A DNA stretch of 64,000 bases from Candidatus Eisenbacteria bacterium RBG_16_71_46 (GTDB lineage Bacteria; Eisenbacteria; RBG-16-71-46). Made by a program: the position numbers and the translations under genes. Shown here piece after piece: positions 5,841 to 16,729 of this stretch (position 1 is its first letter; every line of letters begins with the position of its first letter). The notes under the pieces are model-generated. The model had not been told where the DNA came from. It searched no databases and saw only the letters and a list, made by a program, of their open reading frames with translations. The stretch is from contig MFFQ01000079.1 in the NCBI GenBank assembly GCA_001780165.1, positions 2,348 through 66,347 on the forward strand, read 5' to 3'.

Positions 5841-7124
5841 ATGACGCCTCGCCTCGCGTGGTGGGTTAGCGCCCTCCTTCTGCTCCATCTCGCAGCGCCG
5901 GTCACCGCGAGCACCGCGCGTGACCTGTCCGGCCGCATGCGGCTCGACGGCTTCACCGACGAATACACGGCCGGCGAAGTGGTGTTCGGCCGCAACGCGG
6001 CCGCCGGCAACGTTCCCGAGGAGGCGGACGACGATTCCAAGTGGGGCACGAACAACGACATCCGGCAGCTCCGCATCACCTGGGACGCGAAACACCTCTA
6101 CCTCGCGGGCGAAGGCAACACCTGGGACAACAACATGGTGCTGCTGCTCGACACCATCAAGGGTCACGGATTGCGCACCATGCGGACCCTCAACTCCTGG
6201 CGCCGCAATTTCACCTTCGACACCACGGGCTTCGGTGCGGGTCGCGCGCAGTTCATGCCGGATCTCTTCAGTGGCACCTGGGACGGCAACGTCGCGCCGC
6301 GGTTGCTGATCGTGCTCGACTCCACCACGGTGGACGACCAGGTCCCGGGAACGCTGTTCCAGGCCGCCGCGACGTTTCTCCGCGACCAGCCGAACCGTGC
6401 GATGGAATTGGTGATCCCGTGGCGCACGGTGTTCCTCGCCTCGGCGGGGTTCGGCACGCGGGACACGGTGATGACCGTGGGCGGGGTGCGCGACACCTTC
6501 CATCTCTTCCCCCCCGGCACCAGGATCCGCGTCGCCGGAGTGGTGACCGCGGGCGGGGACGGCAGCGGCGGACCCGACGCCGCGCCCGACAACACGCGCG
6601 GCATGTCGCAGGACTCCAACGCCGAGGAGATCATCGACAACTACGCCGAGATCGACCTCGACCGCGTGGATGACACCGGCGCCGGTCGCGGCGGGCCCGA
6701 CGGCGTCGCCGACTGGGGCATCGAGCCGAAGGAGCGCGTCTCCTTCCGCTACCCGCCGCCGATCCTGGGCCTGCGGTTCAGCCTGCAAGACGCGCGGCTC
6801 GACCGCCCCGCCTTCAAGCCCGATCTCGGCGACCGCATCCGCTTCGGGTTCACGCTCGCCCCGCGCCTCGATCCGAACCTGCAGATCGACCAGATCCGCA
6901 CCGTGGACGTGACGGCCAACGTGTTCGACATGAACGGGCGGTTCGTGAGGAACCTCTACATCGGCGACACCCGTCTGGCACTGTCGCCGCTGAGCTCGGA
7001 CCGCGACGTGTGGGACGGCCGCGACGAGCGAGGGATGCTGGTGACGCCGGGGATCTACATCCTGCGGCTGGTCATCGAGCCCAACCAGAGCCGGATCACG
7101 CGGGCGATGGTGGTCGTGCGATGA
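5841..7124 (+). CDS. secreted protein with a T9SS-type/FlgD-Ig-like C-terminal domain (first gene of the outer-membrane alpha-glucan operon)
   Basis: The 427 aa ORF has the signal peptide MTPRLAWWVSALLLLHLAAPVTAS. The C-terminus is VTANVFDMNGRFVRNLYIGD...VWDGRDERGMLVTPGIYILRLVIEPNQSRITRAMVVVR. Its stop overlaps the next start (ATGA). Confidence 0.85.
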   Translation: MTPRLAWWVSALLLLHLAAPVTASTARDLSGRMRLDGFTDEYTAGEVVFGRNAAAGNVPEEADDDSKWGTNNDIRQLRITWDAKHLYLAGEGNTWDNNMVLLLDTIKGHGLRTMRTLNSWRRNFTFDTTGFGAGRAQFMPDLFSGTWDGNVAPRLLIVLDSTTVDDQVPGTLFQAAATFLRDQPNRAMELVIPWRTVFLASAGFGTRDTVMTVGGVRDTFHLFPPGTRIRVAGVVTAGGDGSGGPDAAPDNTRGMSQDSNAEEIIDNYAEIDLDRVDDTGAGRGGPDGVADWGIEPKERVSFRYPPPILGLRFSLQDARLDRPAFKPDLGDRIRFGFTLAPRLDPNLQIDQIRTVDVTANVFDMNGRFVRNLYIGDTRLALSPLSSDRDVWDGRDERGMLVTPGIYILRLVIEPNQSRITRAMVVVR

Positions 7125-14059: not shown

Positions 14060-16729
14060 ATGCACCGGACCATCACCAGCTTCGCTCCGCGCGCCGCCCG
14101 CGTGTTCGCCTTCGCCGCGCTGGCCGTCGGCGCCCTCGCCCCGGCGGCGTGGGCCACCCAGGTCACGTTTCGCTACCAGCCGGTCATCGGTGGCGTCCAG
14201 TCGGTCTCGGTCGCGGGCACCTTCAACGGGTGGAACGCGACCGATACCCCGCTCGCGGACGCCGACAAGGACGGGGTCTGGGAGAAGGTAATCGATCTGC
14301 CGGCCGGGCGGATCGAGTACAAGTTCGTGGTCAACGGCGACCAGTGGATGACCGACGAGGGCGCGGCGGAGTTCTCCCCCGACGGCTTCGGCGGCCAGAA
14401 CTCGGTGCTGGTGCTCGGCAACGACCCGGTGGTGGTCGGGACCGGCTCGACGGTCAAGAAGATCGAAGCCCCCAAGTTCGGTCTGCGGCGCGTGACCTTC
14501 AAGTTCCGCCCCGAGGGCGAGCCGCAGAAGGTGAGCCTGGCGGGCACCTTCAACGACTGGACCGTGGGCAAGACGCCGATGGCCGATCCCGACGGTGACG
14601 GCGAATACGCCGCGACCGTGCTGCTGGCGCCGGGCTCCTATCAATACAAGTTCGTGGTCGGCGACAACACCTGGATCCAGGACACGAAGGGGCAGGACGC
14701 CGACACCGACGACGGCTACGGGGGCAAGAACTCGATCCTCAACGTGGACGACCGCTTTCCCTCGATCTCGGTGAAGCGCGGCGACGGCCAGATCTATCCC
14801 GACGGCCTGCAGCACGCCCAGGGGGCGAACGAGATCAACAACAGAGGGGGCGGCAAGGTCGAGTTCACCACCCGCGCCCACCTCGACGACATCGACGGGG
14901 TCGATCTCGTGACCTGGTCGGCGGGACGCGAGGCCATGACCCCGATGCATCCGGTCAACCGCGACAAGATTTTCCAGTACTACCGCGCCGACCTCACCAT
15001 GCCGCCGGGCGAGACCCCGTACCTGTTCCGCTACCGCGACGGCGCGAAGTCGCTCTACCTGGCGGCCGGCGGCCTGCGCGCCGCGCCGGACAGCGGCCGC
15101 TTCGTCTACTCGGCGGCGCGATTCCCCGAGTTCATCACGCCGGACTGGGTCAAGAACGGCGTCATCTACCAGATCTTTCCCGACCGCTTCCGCAACGGAA
15201 ACCCGTCGAACGATCCCGACTTCAAGGAGTGGTACTACCAGGGCAAGACCGCGCTGCCGGCAGGCGGAAGCCTCAACACCGACTTCCAGGAGTACTACCA
15301 CCTGGTGAAGGACTGGAACGACTACCAGGGGCTGACCCACTCCCCGTGGACCAAGGACGGTCGCGACTGGATGGCGTTCTACGGCGGCGACATCGAGGGG
15401 GTGCGGCAGAAGCTCGACTATTTGCAAGACTTGGGCGTGACCATCCTCTACTTCAACCCCCTGTTCCAGGCCAAGTCCACCCACAAGTACGACGCCGCCG
15501 ACTACCGCAAGATCGATCCGCATTTCGCGAGCAACGAGGAATTCATCGCCTTCGTCAAGGAGGCCAAGACGCGCGGCATCCGCATCATTCTCGACATCGT
15601 CTACAACCACTCCGGCAACTCCAATTGGGCCTTCAAGGACGCCGCCGAGAAGGGAACCAAGAGCTCATACTACCAATGGTACGAATTCAAGAAGTGGCCC
15701 CTGCCGGACGGTTGGCCCAACGTCGGGCACGCCTGGAAGCCCGCCGACTACTACTATTGCTGGTGGGGCTTCGGCGACCTCCCCGACTTCAACTTCGACC
15801 TCTCACGCAAGAACGACGCCGAGAACGCGATCAAGGACATCACCCAGGCGCAGGTCAACGTTCCCCTGGTGGACTACCTGCTCGAGACCACCGAGTACTG
15901 GATCAAGACCGTCGACGCGGACGGCGTGCGGCTCGACGTCCCGAACGAGGTCCCCTACTGGTTCTGGAAGGTGTTCAACGAGCGGGTGAAGAAGGCGAAG
16001 CCCGACGCCTACATCGTCGGCGAGCTGTGGGGCAACGCCTCCGACTACGTGCGCCCGGGCGTCTACGACGCGGTGATGAACTACGCCTTCTTCCGCGACC
16101 CGGTCCAGCGCTTCCTCGGCATGGGCCAGGGCAGCGCCGCCGAGTTCGACGCCTCGCTCGCCACCGGACGGCTCGCCTACCCGAGCCAGGCGGTGGAAGT
16201 GCAGATGAACCTGATCGACAGCCACGACACCGTGCGCTTCCTCACCCAAGTGGGCGGCAACGCCAACCGTCTCAAGCTGGCCGCGATGTTCGCCATGACC
16301 TACGTCGGGGCCCCGACGATCTACTACGGGGACGAGATCGGCATGGAAGGCGGCAAGGACCCCGACTGTCGCCGGCCCTTCGTCTGGAGCTGGGAGAAGG
16401 AGCCCGCGCGCGTCGCGCTCCACGACTACTACCGCTCGCTCACCAAGCTCCGCCACGCCCACCCGGCGCTGCGGACCGGGAATTTCACCACGCTGAGCAC
16501 CGCGGGGCTGACCTACGCCTACCGGCGCAGCGGGGGCGGCGAGGACTTCGTGGTGGTCCTGAACGCCGGCAAGCAGGACGCCACCGTCACCATCGACACC
16601 GCGCCCTGGGGCGGCAAGGTGGACGCGGCCGACATGCTGGCCGGGAAGTCCGAGCCCTGGAGCGGCGCGGCGCAGGTGGGCGTACCCGCCGAGACCGGCC
16701 GGATCTTCCAGCTCACCCGGAAGCGCTAG
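14060..16729 (+). CDS. secreted GH13 alpha-amylase-family enzyme (neopullulanase/cyclomaltodextrinase-like) with two N-terminal CBM48 modules
   Basis: The 889 aa ORF has a signal peptide and two E-set modules (EYKFVVNGDQWMTDE, YQYKFVVGDNTWIQD). The GH13 conserved regions are DIVYNHSG, GVRLDVPNEV, IVGELWG and LIDSHDTVRF, and it also carries VIYQIFPDRFRNGNPSND. Confidence 0.95.
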   Translation: MHRTITSFAPRAARVFAFAALAVGALAPAAWATQVTFRYQPVIGGVQSVSVAGTFNGWNATDTPLADADKDGVWEKVIDLPAGRIEYKFVVNGDQWMTDEGAAEFSPDGFGGQNSVLVLGNDPVVVGTGSTVKKIEAPKFGLRRVTFKFRPEGEPQKVSLAGTFNDWTVGKTPMADPDGDGEYAATVLLAPGSYQYKFVVGDNTWIQDTKGQDADTDDGYGGKNSILNVDDRFPSISVKRGDGQIYPDGLQHAQGANEINNRGGGKVEFTTRAHLDDIDGVDLVTWSAGREAMTPMHPVNRDKIFQYYRADLTMPPGETPYLFRYRDGAKSLYLAAGGLRAAPDSGRFVYSAARFPEFITPDWVKNGVIYQIFPDRFRNGNPSNDPDFKEWYYQGKTALPAGGSLNTDFQEYYHLVKDWNDYQGLTHSPWTKDGRDWMAFYGGDIEGVRQKLDYLQDLGVTILYFNPLFQAKSTHKYDAADYRKIDPHFASNEEFIAFVKEAKTRGIRIILDIVYNHSGNSNWAFKDAAEKGTKSSYYQWYEFKKWPLPDGWPNVGHAWKPADYYYCWWGFGDLPDFNFDLSRKNDAENAIKDITQAQVNVPLVDYLLETTEYWIKTVDADGVRLDVPNEVPYWFWKVFNERVKKAKPDAYIVGELWGNASDYVRPGVYDAVMNYAFFRDPVQRFLGMGQGSAAEFDASLATGRLAYPSQAVEVQMNLIDSHDTVRFLTQVGGNANRLKLAAMFAMTYVGAPTIYYGDEIGMEGGKDPDCRRPFVWSWEKEPARVALHDYYRSLTKLRHAHPALRTGNFTTLSTAGLTYAYRRSGGGEDFVVVLNAGKQDATVTIDTAPWGGKVDAADMLAGKSEPWSGAAQVGVPAETGRIFQLTRKR

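Follow-up and report, generated by a model that had tools for sequence, protein, structure and literature searches.

A conserved five-gene core that may provide a TonB-independent outer-membrane route for alpha-glucans in Candidatus Eisenbacteria and other FCB-group candidate phyla

The closest described systems for alpha-glucan uptake are Sus of Bacteroides, the maltose system of E. coli and cym of Klebsiella oxytoca. Sus, from the FCB superphylum, is a single co-regulated cluster in which several lipoproteins with tandem starch-binding modules (SusE/F) accompany an outer-membrane barrel step, followed by a periplasmic neopullulanase-type GH13 enzyme (SusA) and an inner-membrane importer of the MFS type. 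Its barrel, SusC, is a 22-strand TonB-dependent transporter, and is joined by SusD. In the E. coli system (LamB, MalE, MalFGK2, MalS), passage through the 18-strand LamB trimer is energy-independent and directionality comes from periplasmic binding by soluble MalE; a periplasmic amylase and an ABC importer complete the route. The cym system places a dedicated channel, the 14-strand monomeric CymA, beside an ABC importer, a cyclomaltodextrinase/neopullulanase-family GH13 enzyme and a CGTase. A different kind of arrangement is known from T9SS, where the gene of a protein with a beta-sandwich C-terminal domain (CTD) adjoins that of a PorV/PorQ/PorP-superfamily barrel (PorU-PorV, PorZ-PorQ, PG1035-PorP, SprB-SprF). 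Dedicated pairs of a CTD protein and a PorP-like barrel that serve to anchor the protein at the surface, or to target it there, have been documented (PMC9143113, PMC12618676).

The locus described here is a cluster for starch/glycogen use from an uncultured soil bacterium, Candidatus Eisenbacteria. The window, i.e., the whole stretch of DNA analysed, has 64,000 nt, and eight ORFs (A to H) occupy positions 5841-16729 of the + strand. These genes and their flanks are as follows.

64..945, + strand: MalF-type ABC permease, inner membrane (PF00528 BPD_transp_1, 58.5 bits)
942..1787, + strand: MalG-type ABC permease, inner membrane (PF00528, 53.5 bits)
1861..2781, - strand: secreted 306-aa protein of unassigned function with a signal-peptide-like N-terminus
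3025..5544, - strand: surface-located or secreted protein of 839 aa that carries a T9SS type-A sorting domain, divergent from A
5841..7124, + strand: A, 427 aa, with a signal peptide, an unnamed N-terminal domain of ~270 aa and a FlgD-Ig/T9SS-type CTD
7121..8092, + strand: B, 323 aa, a remote PorV/PorQ/PorP-superfamily outer-membrane barrel according to sequence profiles
8089..9645, + strand: C, 518 aa, a predicted outer-membrane beta-barrel with 24 strands and a terminal Phe, family unclassified
9646..11940, + strand: D, 764 aa, with a signal peptide, a CBM48 module (~38-121), a flexible linker (~122-140) and a predicted outer-membrane barrel of ~26 strands ending in Phe
11957..12352, + strand: E, a small lipoprotein (lipobox LAGC) with one CBM48 (PF16561, 30.2 bits)
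12349..13161, + strand: F, a probable lipoprotein (non-canonical lipobox APGC) with a degenerate CBM48-like C-terminal region
13194..13988, + strand: G, a lipoprotein (lipobox LLAGC) whose two CBM48 modules are carried on linkers rich in Pro/Ala
14060..16729, + strand: H, a Sec-exported GH13 enzyme with two N-terminal CBM48 modules (PF00128, 203.9 bits)
16742..17845, - strand: MalK-type ABC ATPase, convergent with H (ABC_tran 116, OB_MalK 48.4 and TOBE_2 45 bits)
18039..19244, - strand: esterase (PF00756, 118.4 bits) with a marginal N-terminal CBM20 (CBM_20, 22.5 bits, cutoff 23.3)

The eight same-strand genes and the overlaps listed in an earlier note on this DNA were recovered exactly: ATGA at 7121-7124 and 8089-8092, TAGATG at 9643-9648 and GTGA at 12349-12352. 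The remaining intergenic gaps within A-H measure 16, 32 and 71 nt. Because of these exact overlaps, and since no terminator-like site was found on the + strand inside the cluster, the organisation of A-H is operon-like. A GC3/GC2 filter retained A, B (from a GTG start at 7010), D, E and H, whose GC3 of ~0.9 and GC2 of ~0.45-0.55 are those to be expected of true genes at a genomic GC content of 70%; C, F and G are supported by homologs instead.

The overall logic resembles that of Sus: a single, presumably co-regulated cluster, lipoproteins E, F and G as counterparts of SusE/F, an outer-membrane barrel step, H as counterpart of SusA and an inner-membrane importer. The cluster differs from Sus in lacking both a TonB-dependent transporter (neither plug nor TonB box occurs) and a SusD-like protein, in barrels of 24 and ~26 strands, in CBM48 binding modules, of which one is fused to a barrel, in a core pair of PorV-like barrel and CTD protein, and in an ABC importer. 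With the E. coli maltose system it would share energy-independent passage and directionality through periplasmic binding, together with a periplasmic amylase and a MalFGK-type importer whose MalK carries OB/TOBE domains; retention is, however, proposed to depend on membrane-tethered CBM48 modules and not on a soluble MalE alone. The cym system resembles it in combining a dedicated outer-membrane channel with an ABC importer and a GH13 enzyme of the H subfamily, whereas here the enzyme is exported and bears CBM48 modules, and a CGTase is absent.

About 80 species-level genomes from Eisenbacteria, Cloacimonadota, Krumholzibacteriota and Neomarinimicrobiota share the gene order A-B-C-D-E, which bears out the gene-order conservation that the earlier note had put forward for checking. 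A lies upstream of B in 63 of 65 loci, B is present in 66 of 67, E follows D in all 60, and D starts with a CBM48 in 56 of 60. Since this order recurs in ~80 independent genomes, the arrangement is far beyond chance, and A-E is a conserved core in at least four FCB-group candidate phyla, not a one-off. Its usual neighbours are GH13/GH57 enzymes and a MalEFG-type importer, with a GH13 gene at most 10 kb from the module in 27 of 35 loci and MalFG in 28 of 35; in related loci an SBP and a LacI regulator are also encoded. Across phyla the module proteins share 22-60% identity, and the most divergent loci retain the CBM48 on D and a nearby GH13 or GH57. No description of the module was found in full-text literature queries or in a Cloacimonadota genome paper, and the earlier label "undescribed" is kept. 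The recurring five-gene core points to an undescribed route for alpha-glucans across the outer membrane.

The reading that we prefer, with a probability of roughly 0.6, is that A-E form a conserved TonB-independent module which captures alpha-glucans at the outer membrane, translocates them and feeds a periplasmic GH13 enzyme and an ABC importer. The core is proposed to fill the place held elsewhere by SusC/SusD or LamB. The interpretation in the earlier note came through all the computational checks that it had named as able to refute it. A would be exported and kept at the cell surface by docking of its FlgD-Ig/T9SS-type CTD on a dedicated barrel, B, and its Trp-rich N-terminal domain would touch the polymer. 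Chains of starch, glycogen or maltodextrin, perhaps first cleaved by amylases with a CTD whose genes lie elsewhere in loci of this kind, would cross the membrane via C and/or D independently of TonB. The tethered CBM48 modules (the D N-terminus, E, the two-module G and the degenerate F) would bind the chain, block its back-diffusion and pass it on to H, which may trim it to maltose or short maltodextrins for the MalEFG/MalK-type transporter. Function is read from context and fold, and from these we infer translocation and its direction, the identity of the conduit barrel, the orientation of the CBM48 modules, complex formation and the substrate.

AlphaFold2 models were obtained for C (pLDDT 87.4, pTM 0.79) and D (pLDDT 89.5), and their strands were counted by parsing DSSP element lists. 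In both models long loops alternate with turns of 2-5 residues, and C has neither an N-terminal plug nor an extension. Such alternation is canonical in outer-membrane proteins, as is the Phe at the terminus, and C and D are confidently predicted to be transmembrane beta-barrels, not soluble folds, in line with the two large barrels that had been claimed. Foldseek returned only outer-membrane barrels for C (the ushers FimD/PapC, with 24 strands, scoring best at a TM-score of ~0.5) and, for D, only generic large barrels of the TBDT, usher and LptD types at TMq ~0.3. Alignments of C and D to ushers and LptD have 7-11% identity, TMq of at most 0.52 and rmsd of at least 10 Å. Both are unrelated to LamB (no PF02264 match, Foldseek TMq ~0.32), and CymA was not among the top matches. 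Neither C nor any of 56 members of its family matches Pfam or NCBIfam, none of 62 D-family members matches a TonB-receptor, LamB or porin model, PF00593 and PF07715 match no member of either family, and the two family profiles matched no PDB sequence outside CBM48. By sequence, the barrels lie outside every known porin or transporter family, as the earlier note had suspected; its statement that SusC, SusD and LamB components are missing also held, as Pfam/NCBIfam searches of the locus and flanks detected neither a TonB plug or box nor SusD or LamB.

It could be argued that C and D merely lie beside a starch operon, as general porins or as envelope proteins unrelated to it, and form no functional module: C itself lacks a carbohydrate-related domain, and function is read from the neighbourhood alone. 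This is very improbable in view of the translational coupling across the cluster and of an A-E order found in 56-66 of 60-67 testable loci, in four phyla and down to 22-30% identity. A CBM48 is covalently fused to D in 62 of 62 family members. With 155 representatives among 1.84 billion, the C family is very small, and its homologs occur, wherever examined, in this gene context only.

Ushers and LptD are exporters or assembly machines with 24-26-strand barrels. Barrels of this size are typical of such machines, not of nutrient channels, which speaks against uptake. LptD-LptE (26 strands, a periplasmic beta-sandwich at the N-terminus and a small lipoprotein as partner) and the 24-strand FimD/PapC are structural analogues only; they have no sequence similarity to C and D, and the context here is catabolic, not LPS or pilus assembly. 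An alpha-glucan export or biogenesis machine, with D and E acting like LptD/LptE or C like an usher, a capsular or extracellular alpha-glucan as the secreted product and H as a remodelling transglycosylase, would nevertheless account for the strand numbers and the pairing of barrel and lipoprotein, for FimD/PapC having the best TM-scores for C and LptD being among the matches of D, and for a UniRef record in which a C homolog is labelled "Alginate expo...". We consider it improbable, as no glycosyltransferase, GlgA/GlgC/GlgE or Wzx/Wzy-type gene was found in the window cluster or in three related loci with Pfam-labelled gene tables (L001-L003), and the Pfam model Alginate_exp matched none of the 56 C-family members. 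Conserved neighbours in these three loci are importer components (an SBP, MalF/G/K) and a LacI-type repressor, and their hydrolases are of neopullulanase, alpha-amylase and GH57 types.

Six CBM48/AMPK1_CBM modules pass the Pfam cutoffs, one each in D and E and two each in G and H. The CBM48 of D (PF16561 54.9 bits, PF02922 38.8 bits) aligns to the glycogen-binding domain of AMPK-beta1 (1z0n, E = 5e-14) with the FNxW, YKF and DGQW motifs kept, and the D and E families show little or no variation at the equivalent Trp, Lys, Trp and Asn positions. G scores 91.7 bits with PF16561 over two stretches and 63.8 bits with PF02922. F matched neither Pfam nor PDB; its last ~60 aa align with the E-family CBM48 (hhalign probability 89%, 56 columns) without keeping the Trp/Lys binding positions, its architecture varies across lineages, and homologs elsewhere have CarboxypepD_reg-type Ig domains. 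Judged from its sequence, F holds only a degenerate module and is not a bona fide CBM48 protein. The three CBM48 lipoproteins of the earlier note are thus E and G, both with canonical LAGC lipoboxes, and F only in a loose sense; likewise, of its at least seven CBM48-like modules the seventh, in F, is degenerate. In the canonical topology of outer-membrane proteins the barrel N-terminus is periplasmic. The CBM48 of D would therefore face the periplasm, as would the lipoproteins and H by default, and capture may be partly periplasmic (retention or ratchet), not purely surface binding.

The CTD of A is clearly of FlgD-Ig/T9SS type at the family level: FlgD_ig matches 26 of 35 members, the family profile matches FlgD (5.6e-6) and the C-terminal end of PorU (0.005), and hhalign gives 92% against the CTD of the adjacent 839-aa protein, a bona fide T9SS domain. 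In A itself it appears as a remote, sub-threshold T9SS relative (TIGR04183 14.6 bits, cutoff 23), and the earlier designation as a T9SS-CTD surface protein applies in the former sense only. The N-terminal domain is conserved and rich in invariant Trp/Asp/Asn, and A is proposed to be a surface-exposed subunit. B, described before as PorV-like, is a remote relative of that superfamily which fails the curated PorV/PorQ cutoffs (NF033709 33.6 bits, cutoff 90). PorV (6h3i_F, E = 0.003) was the sole PDB match of its family profile, all 53 family members match NCBIfam PorV_fam/PorV2 below cutoff, and some match TraF_2, PorP_SprF or Toluene_X. A role of B as anchor or shuttle for the CTD of A is proposed. 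Like the genes of T9SS pairs, A and B are adjacent, and here also translationally coupled; unlike them, B is far below the PorV/PorQ/PorP cutoffs, the CTD is of the FlgD_ig type, which is common in FCB phyla other than Bacteroidota, and the putative pair sits in a nutrient-uptake cluster with two further barrels.

H is of the neopullulanase/maltogenic-amylase/cyclomaltodextrinase type, with TVA II as best PDB match (1bvz, E = 1.7e-109) and SusA (9fyz) as a detectable one. GH13 regions I-IV are legible (DIVYNHS, GVRLDVPNE, IVGELWG, LIDSHDT) and the catalytic Asp/Glu/Asp is intact. Both CBM48 modules claimed for this secreted enzyme exceed the Pfam cutoff, no T9SS CTD is found in its sequence, and it is proposed to be a periplasmic depolymerase.

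The A-B pair, similar to the anchoring pairs of T9SS CTD proteins with PorP/PorV/PorQ (PMC9143113, PMC12618676), suggests a surface-display apparatus as another explanation. The barrels would then anchor or export binding proteins, B holding A and C and/or D serving as platforms or Slam-like translocators for E, F and G; a cell-bound "amylosome" would tether starch/glycogen, and oligosaccharide products would enter via unrelated general porins. The post-Cys tether of E is near-invariant (C-S-x-L-N-F-I-K-[KR]-R-L-P-P-P) and looks like a docking or sorting signal, and G has long Pro/Ala linkers. Many F homologs begin with the acidic C-D-D-N-P, which we take to be comparable with the surface-lipoprotein export signals of Bacteroidota, and the SusE/SusF-like architecture of E, F and G presumably favours display as well. 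Such an apparatus is possible but unlikely, as two very large barrels exceed the needs of anchoring, the CBM48 of D is fused to a canonically periplasmic N-terminus, and no other outer-membrane channel is conserved in the examined loci. H has a Sec signal, two CBM48 modules and no CTD; polymer-length substrate therefore seems to be expected in the periplasm.

The flanking genes agree with the catabolic context of the preferred uptake reading. MalF/MalG-type permeases and a MalK-type ATPase were present as claimed, with the GTG start of the second permease (942) overlapping the stop of the first. The SBP gene, absent from the 64,000-nt window, presumably lies upstream of position 64. The esterase was also present, its CBM20 falling just below the cutoff; it is accessory, of uncertain membership in the system, and co-located in several Eisenbacteria loci. 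The 306-aa protein belongs to no Pfam family, and its homologs, at about -6.2 kb from the module on the opposite strand in several loci, make it a conserved neighbour in some Eisenbacteria. The 839-aa protein combines TIGR04183 (32.8 bits, cutoff 23) and FlgD_ig (33.8 bits) matches with choice-of-anchor X domains, and almost every Eisenbacteria locus has a homolog with 50-60% identity at -5.0 kb, encoded on the opposite strand.

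The eight plus-strand open reading frames that the earlier note had described as an alpha-glucan capture locus are all present in the window, where GC content is about 70%. They are designated A to H, and A-E form the core of five genes, a proposed outer-membrane module.

Eight genes of the proposed glucan locus, with encoded products
5841-7124, + strand: A, 427 aa; signal peptide; no family above threshold
7121-8092, + strand: B, 323 aa; signal peptide; short PorV/PorQ motif only
8089-9645, + strand: C, 518 aa; signal peptide; no family match; C-terminal ...KGNF
9646-11940, + strand: D, 764 aa; signal peptide; CBM48 at about 34-121 (PF16561, 54.9 bits); about 640 residues without a family; C-terminal ...IVRF
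11957-12352, + strand: E, 131 aa; lipobox LAGC; one CBM48 (PF16561, 30.2 bits)
12349-13161, + strand: F, 270 aa; non-canonical lipobox; no family match
13194-13988, + strand: G, 264 aa; lipobox LLAGC; two CBM48 modules joined by Pro/Ala-rich linkers
14060-16729, + strand: H, 889 aa; Sec signal peptide; two CBM48 modules, Alpha-amylase_N, GH13 catalytic domain and a C-terminal domain

The gene junctions are exactly as had been read: ATGA occurs at 7121 and again at 8089, at 9643-9648 a TAG abuts the ATG of the next gene, and 12349 carries GTGA. The remaining gaps within the cluster measure 16, 32 and 71 nt, and no terminator-like site was found on the plus strand between its ends. A sigma-70 promoter scan, uninformative for this phylum, gave no match. 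In a codon-position filter, A, B (taken from GTG at 7010), D, E and H show a GC3 of about 0.9, in line with genuine genes at this GC content. The filter returned no C, F or G, and the reality of these three rests on their many homologs. The frame of B can be extended upstream to GTG-7010, but 7121 is its likely start: translation from there yields a normal signal peptide and a homolog-like length (about 300-320 aa), and this ATG forms the ATGA overlap with A. The two MalF/G-type permeases and the MalK-type ATPase, the latter with OB_MalK and TOBE_2 domains, flank the cluster as described; of the proposed CBM20-esterase, the esterase stands and the CBM20 match is marginal. All named homologs of the cluster proteins come from Candidatus Eisenbacteria metagenome-assembled genomes.

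The best-supported reading is that this locus serves alpha-glucan utilisation, with A-E as its outer-membrane step. The enzyme H matches PF00128 with 203.9 bits and Alpha-amylase_N with 26.5 bits, and GH13 regions I-IV with the catalytic Asp/Glu/Asp are legible in its sequence. Its closest solved relative is TVA II/neopullulanase 2 (E = 1.7e-109); maltogenic amylase, neopullulanase and cyclomaltodextrinase all match below 1e-98, and Bacteroides SusA more weakly. H thus belongs to the GH13 neopullulanase/maltogenic amylase/cyclomaltodextrinase group, and is assigned to the group and not to one exact specificity because its score against the NCBIfam equivalog, 351 bits, lies under the cutoff of 568. 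Like its Cloacimonadota counterpart, H has a Sec signal and no C-terminal sorting domain (CTD). It is a catabolic enzyme whose site of action is probably the periplasm. A different alpha-amylase in a related locus carries an FlgD_ig CTD.

At least seven CBM48-like modules had been claimed. Six are solid, as those of D and E, the two of G and the two of H pass the PF16561/PF02922 gathering cutoffs; F fails in Pfam. The C-terminal 60 or so residues of F align with the E-family CBM48 at an hhalign probability of 89%, with the conserved Trp and Lys missing. The D module matches the AMPK-beta1 glycogen-binding domain 1z0n (E = 5e-14) and keeps FNxW, YKF and DGQW. The corresponding Trp, Lys, Trp and Asn are invariant or nearly so in 62 D homologs and 28 E homologs, and we take these positions to be the ones that contact glycan in the AMPK-beta structure. 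By these residues, the CBM48 modules look binding-competent.

Lipoprotein E carries a further conserved element, the 13-residue, near-invariant motif C-S-x-L-N-F-I-K-[KR]-R-L-P-P-P directly after the lipidated Cys. This tether is kept across Eisenbacteria, Cloacimonadota, Krumholzibacteriota and Neomarinimicrobiota, and its conservation exceeds that of much of the CBM48. It has the look of an element for docking or sorting, and such conservation speaks for a defined site of docking, for which D or C would be the simplest candidates. A few Cloacimonadota versions of E (related loci L076, L077 and L081) are without a lipobox, and in them the motif is preceded by an additional N-terminal domain.

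The two large proteins C and D had been proposed as barrels, and AlphaFold2 predicts both as such, while Foldseek against the PDB matches them to outer-membrane barrels only. The model of C (pLDDT 87.4, pTM 0.79; alignment of 56 homologs) has 24 long, well-defined strands as counted from the parsed DSSP element list, joined in alternation by turns of 2-5 residues and by loops as long as 28 residues. The first strand begins directly after the signal peptide and the final strand ends at the terminal Phe. As modelled, C is of canonical outer-membrane-protein topology, with both termini predicted to be periplasmic and no plug or N-terminal extension. The model of D (pLDDT 89.5, pTM 0.79; alignment of 62 homologs) runs from the CBM48 beta-sandwich through a low-confidence linker at about 122-140 (pLDDT 56-78) into about 26 strands, a DSSP count that may be off by two. 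Three long insertions occur in D, at residues 275-324, 566-603 and 700-754, the last of them helical.

Neither barrel falls into a described family. No Pfam match outside CBM48 was found in the 56 C-family or 62 D-family members, and no NCBIfam model matches C or D of the window. Profile searches of PDB sequences were empty for C and brought up CBM48 proteins alone for D. The C-family profile yielded just 155 matches at E <= 0.001 among 1.84 billion representative proteins, and ten distant full-length relatives of C are without a Pfam domain, with one exception: in P0464, a distant C-family representative of 698 aa, a CsgG-like domain (PF03783, E = 2e-7) is fused N-terminal to the barrel. In Foldseek, the top TM-scores of C are 0.51-0.52, to the 24-strand ushers FimD and PapC, followed by TonB-dependent receptors at about 0.41 and LamB and AlgE at about 0.32, all with 7-12% identity. 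D matches the TonB-dependent receptors OprC, Fiu and FhuA, as well as FimD and LptD, at TMq 0.25-0.34 with rmsd >15 A. That C and D are paralogs is not established, hhalign giving only a 47-column C-terminal similarity with a probability of 23%.

In the locus, family and fold searches found none of the SusC, SusD or LamB components whose absence had been claimed. As candidates for SusC-like or other TonB-dependent transporters, C and D have neither a plug domain nor a 22-strand barrel of the PF00593/TIGR04056 type. The PF07715 plug is absent from both and from the 56 C-family and 62 D-family members. Mature C begins at strand 1 and mature D at its CBM48, so that no plug or TonB box stands ahead of the barrel. 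No PF00593 match at E <= 0.1 was obtained for D of the window or its 62 aligned homologs; the sole trace of this family is a sub-threshold match in the divergent D homolog of locus L080 (21.4 bits against a cutoff of 27). Structural matches of C and D to TonB-dependent transporters remain at TMq 0.3-0.4 with rmsd >13 A. SusD/RagB models match none of the 8 cluster and 12 flanking proteins, and none is listed in the related loci. For the sugar porins (LamB/OprB/ScrY), no PF02264 or related Pfam match was found in C, D or their families, and the Foldseek similarity of LamB to C is weak (TMq 0.32, rmsd 17-19 A). D and E were also considered as an LptD/LptE-like pair and do not qualify: neither has an OstA or LptE match in Pfam or NCBIfam, and the fold match of LptD to D is weak (TMq 0.26).

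[quoted passage not shown] B is below the curated cutoffs of the PorV/PorQ families (NF033709, NF033710, NF033711), with 33.6 bits against a cutoff of 90 for NF033709 (PorV_fam) and 41.6 bits against 325 for PorV2. All 53 B-family members match PorV_fam and PorV2 (best E = 2e-14), likewise under curated cutoffs, and subsets match PorQ, PorV, FadL/Toluene_X, TraF_2 and PorP/SprF. A profile of the 53 homologs has a single match among PDB sequences, PorV 6h3i_F (E = 0.003), which spans the N-terminal motif and the C-terminal barrel motif. By profile comparison, B is a remote superfamily homolog of the PorV/PorQ families and does not belong to them.

A matches the model of the T9SS type-A sorting domain (TIGR04183/PF18962) with 14.6 bits, under the cutoff of 23. 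Within its family of 35 syntenic members, FlgD_ig is matched by 26, Por_Secre_tail by 9 and CHU_C by 8, and in the PDB the family profile finds FlgD 3osv (5.6e-6) as well as PorU 6za2 at its very C-terminal end (E = 0.005). The putative CTD of A also aligns with that of a neighbouring 839-aa protein (hhalign 92%), which passes TIGR04183. A conserved domain makes up the N-terminal 270 or so residues of A; Trp, Asp and Asn are invariant at many of its positions, and it matches nothing in family-profile searches of the PDB and Pfam. In hhalign it matches neither the 839-aa protein, where similarity is confined to the CTD (92%), nor a 306-aa protein upstream (probability 0.2%).

Type-B CTD proteins bind cognate PorP/SprF-like barrels encoded by adjacent genes, leading to surface anchorage or targeting (PMC9143113, PMC12618676), and T9SS components have been reported or suspected in several FCB phyla outside Bacteroidota (PMC11285876). 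Genes A and B resemble such a pair of CTD protein and dedicated barrel, and from these published pairs and components we infer that B could hold A at the cell surface. A multicopper oxidase at 54596-57082 (+), with Cu-oxidase_2 and Cu-oxidase_3, carries a C-terminal FlgD_ig above the Pfam cutoff, which suggests that in this genome the FlgD-Ig CTD serves generally as a tag for secretion or sorting and is not specific to the glucan locus.

The position of A is taken in L080 (3671-9007) by a 1,778-aa protein with an A-type N-terminal domain (hhalign 99.1%), Ig-like domains, Glucodextran_C (PF09985) and a weak CTD. The A domain is not itself Glucodextran_C, as it aligns with residues 1-259 of this protein (99.1%), Glucodextran_C lies at 1096-1366, and no A-family member matches PF09985. 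Two minus-strand genes lie upstream of A. The 839-aa protein (3025-5544, -) combines choice-of-anchor X domains with a T9SS type-A CTD that scores above threshold, and its gene is transcribed divergently from A; it is found at -5.0 kb in nearly all Eisenbacteria loci with 50-60% identity and is absent from the loci of other phyla, so it may be a lineage-specific accessory of the glucan system. The 306-aa secreted protein (1861-2781, -) is transcribed divergently from A.

A synteny scan in which each GTDB species was represented by one genome gave 92 loci; 79 distinct ones were kept. Identity to C is 38-78% in Eisenbacteria, 22-31% in Cloacimonadota, 32% in Krumholzibacteriota and 28-29% in Neomarinimicrobiota, and two further metagenome-assembled genomes are labelled Gemmatimonadota. 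Among loci whose flanking sequence is long enough for the count, A lies upstream in 63/65, B upstream in 66/67 and E downstream in all 60; a CBM48 start follows C directly in 56 of 60. An H-like GH13 occurs within 10 kb in 27 of 35 testable loci, and MalF/G in 28 of 35. The order A-B-C-D-E recurs in the neighbourhoods of distant homologs, where it adjoins GH13 enzymes, a solute-binding protein (SBP), two permeases and a LacI regulator. In Cloacimonadota locus L053, the A counterpart has an FlgD_ig CTD above threshold, that of D has a CBM48 and a long C-terminal region, and that of E retains its CBM48. Even in L080 and L081 (C identity 22-29%) the CBM48 is kept on D, and L080 has alpha-glucan enzymes nearby, with a GH57 bearing CBM48 modules in place of the GH13, and an SBP. 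No divergent version with other CBMs or glycan contexts was found among these most distant loci, and the A-E module is dedicated to alpha-glucans wherever examined.

This synteny, together with the fusion of a CBM48 to a barrel, contradicts the view that the module merely adjoins a starch operon, which we regard as highly improbable. It is also unlikely that the barrels form an alpha-glucan export machine analogous to LptDE or the ushers: the context is one of importer, repressor and hydrolase, and no synthesis genes occur in the window cluster or in three related loci with annotated gene tables.

The proposed mechanism has five steps. A would contact surface glucan while B holds it, the glucan would pass through C and/or D without TonB energy, tethered CBM48 modules would retain the chain, H would cleave it, and the ABC system would import the products. 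The D CBM48 precedes strand 1 on a flexible linker of about 19 residues and, given the canonical topology, should be periplasmic, barring a course of the linker through the lumen; by default, E, F, G and H are placed in the periplasm too. The GH13 is exported without a CTD and bears two CBM48 modules, suggesting that chains of polymer length reach the periplasm, which favours threading combined with a ratchet. The retention by CBM48 would be comparable to the directionality that MalE provides behind LamB.

The lipoproteins E, F and G may instead be surface-exposed. FCB bacteria export lipoproteins to the cell surface, and acidic starts after the Cys resemble Bacteroidota surface-lipoprotein export signals. 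On that basis the whole could be a surface-display apparatus without conduit function, a doubtful reading that draws on the many F homologs starting with C-D-D-N-P and on the architecture of E, F and G, which resembles that of SusE/F. After the lipobox, F homologs in L001, L033, L036, L046-L048 and L058 have C-D-D-N-P or C-D-P-N, and F of the window has C-G-R-N-R. F is the most variable component, ranging from 270 to about 900 aa, often with CarboxypepD_reg-type Ig domains.

We tentatively propose, with a probability of about 0.3, that A-E is the first representative of a new class of glycan importers, which in FCB-group phyla would work at the outer membrane independently of TonB. Long alpha-glucan chains would be threaded through the 24-strand and/or the approximately 26-strand barrel; a periplasmic CBM48 array, consisting of the D module, E docked via its tether, G and H, would act as a Brownian ratchet pulling the chain inward; and the PorV-like barrel would keep a new type of glycan-contacting protein, A, on the surface. 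Such a class would have arisen in sister lineages of Bacteroidota as an alternative to SusCD without homology to it.

To our knowledge, few routes are known for glycans across the outer membrane: TonB-dependent transporters of the SusCD type, specific porins (LamB, CymA, ChiP) and some TonB-dependent maltodextrin receptors. In function, the present locus is a glycan utilisation locus of an already known kind. Its outer-membrane machinery, judged by sequence comparison, is not homologous to SusCD, LamB or CymA, and its core parts include two barrel families without classification, the fusion of a CBM to a barrel, and a pair of T9SS-style CTD protein and barrel. No earlier description of the module was found in the full-text literature, a coverage that most subscription journals fall outside. 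The locus points to another outer-membrane solution for glycans, one that takes parts out of the repertoire of type IX secretion. The module occurs in no fewer than four uncultured phyla, which abound in soils, sediments, wastewater and anoxic waters, and those predictors of polysaccharide utilisation loci that are keyed on SusC/SusD will miss it. Its confirmation would give a function to several 'hypothetical protein' families, improve the prediction of starch and glycogen consumers in those environments, bear on the origin of SusCD-type uptake within the FCB superphylum, and offer a tractable test case for energy-independent polymer threading by binding-module ratchets.

Other genes of the window appear unrelated to the glucan locus. 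They include two tandem AcrB-type RND pumps with an HlyD-type adaptor at 33156-40591 (-), about 16 kb downstream, a 2-oxoglutarate dehydrogenase E1 at 24685-27651 and an FG-GAP/ASPIC protein at 29888-31960. An 823-aa protein encoded at 59636-62107 (-) shows an unusual combination of two PDZ domains and a C-terminal ShlB/Omp85-type barrel.
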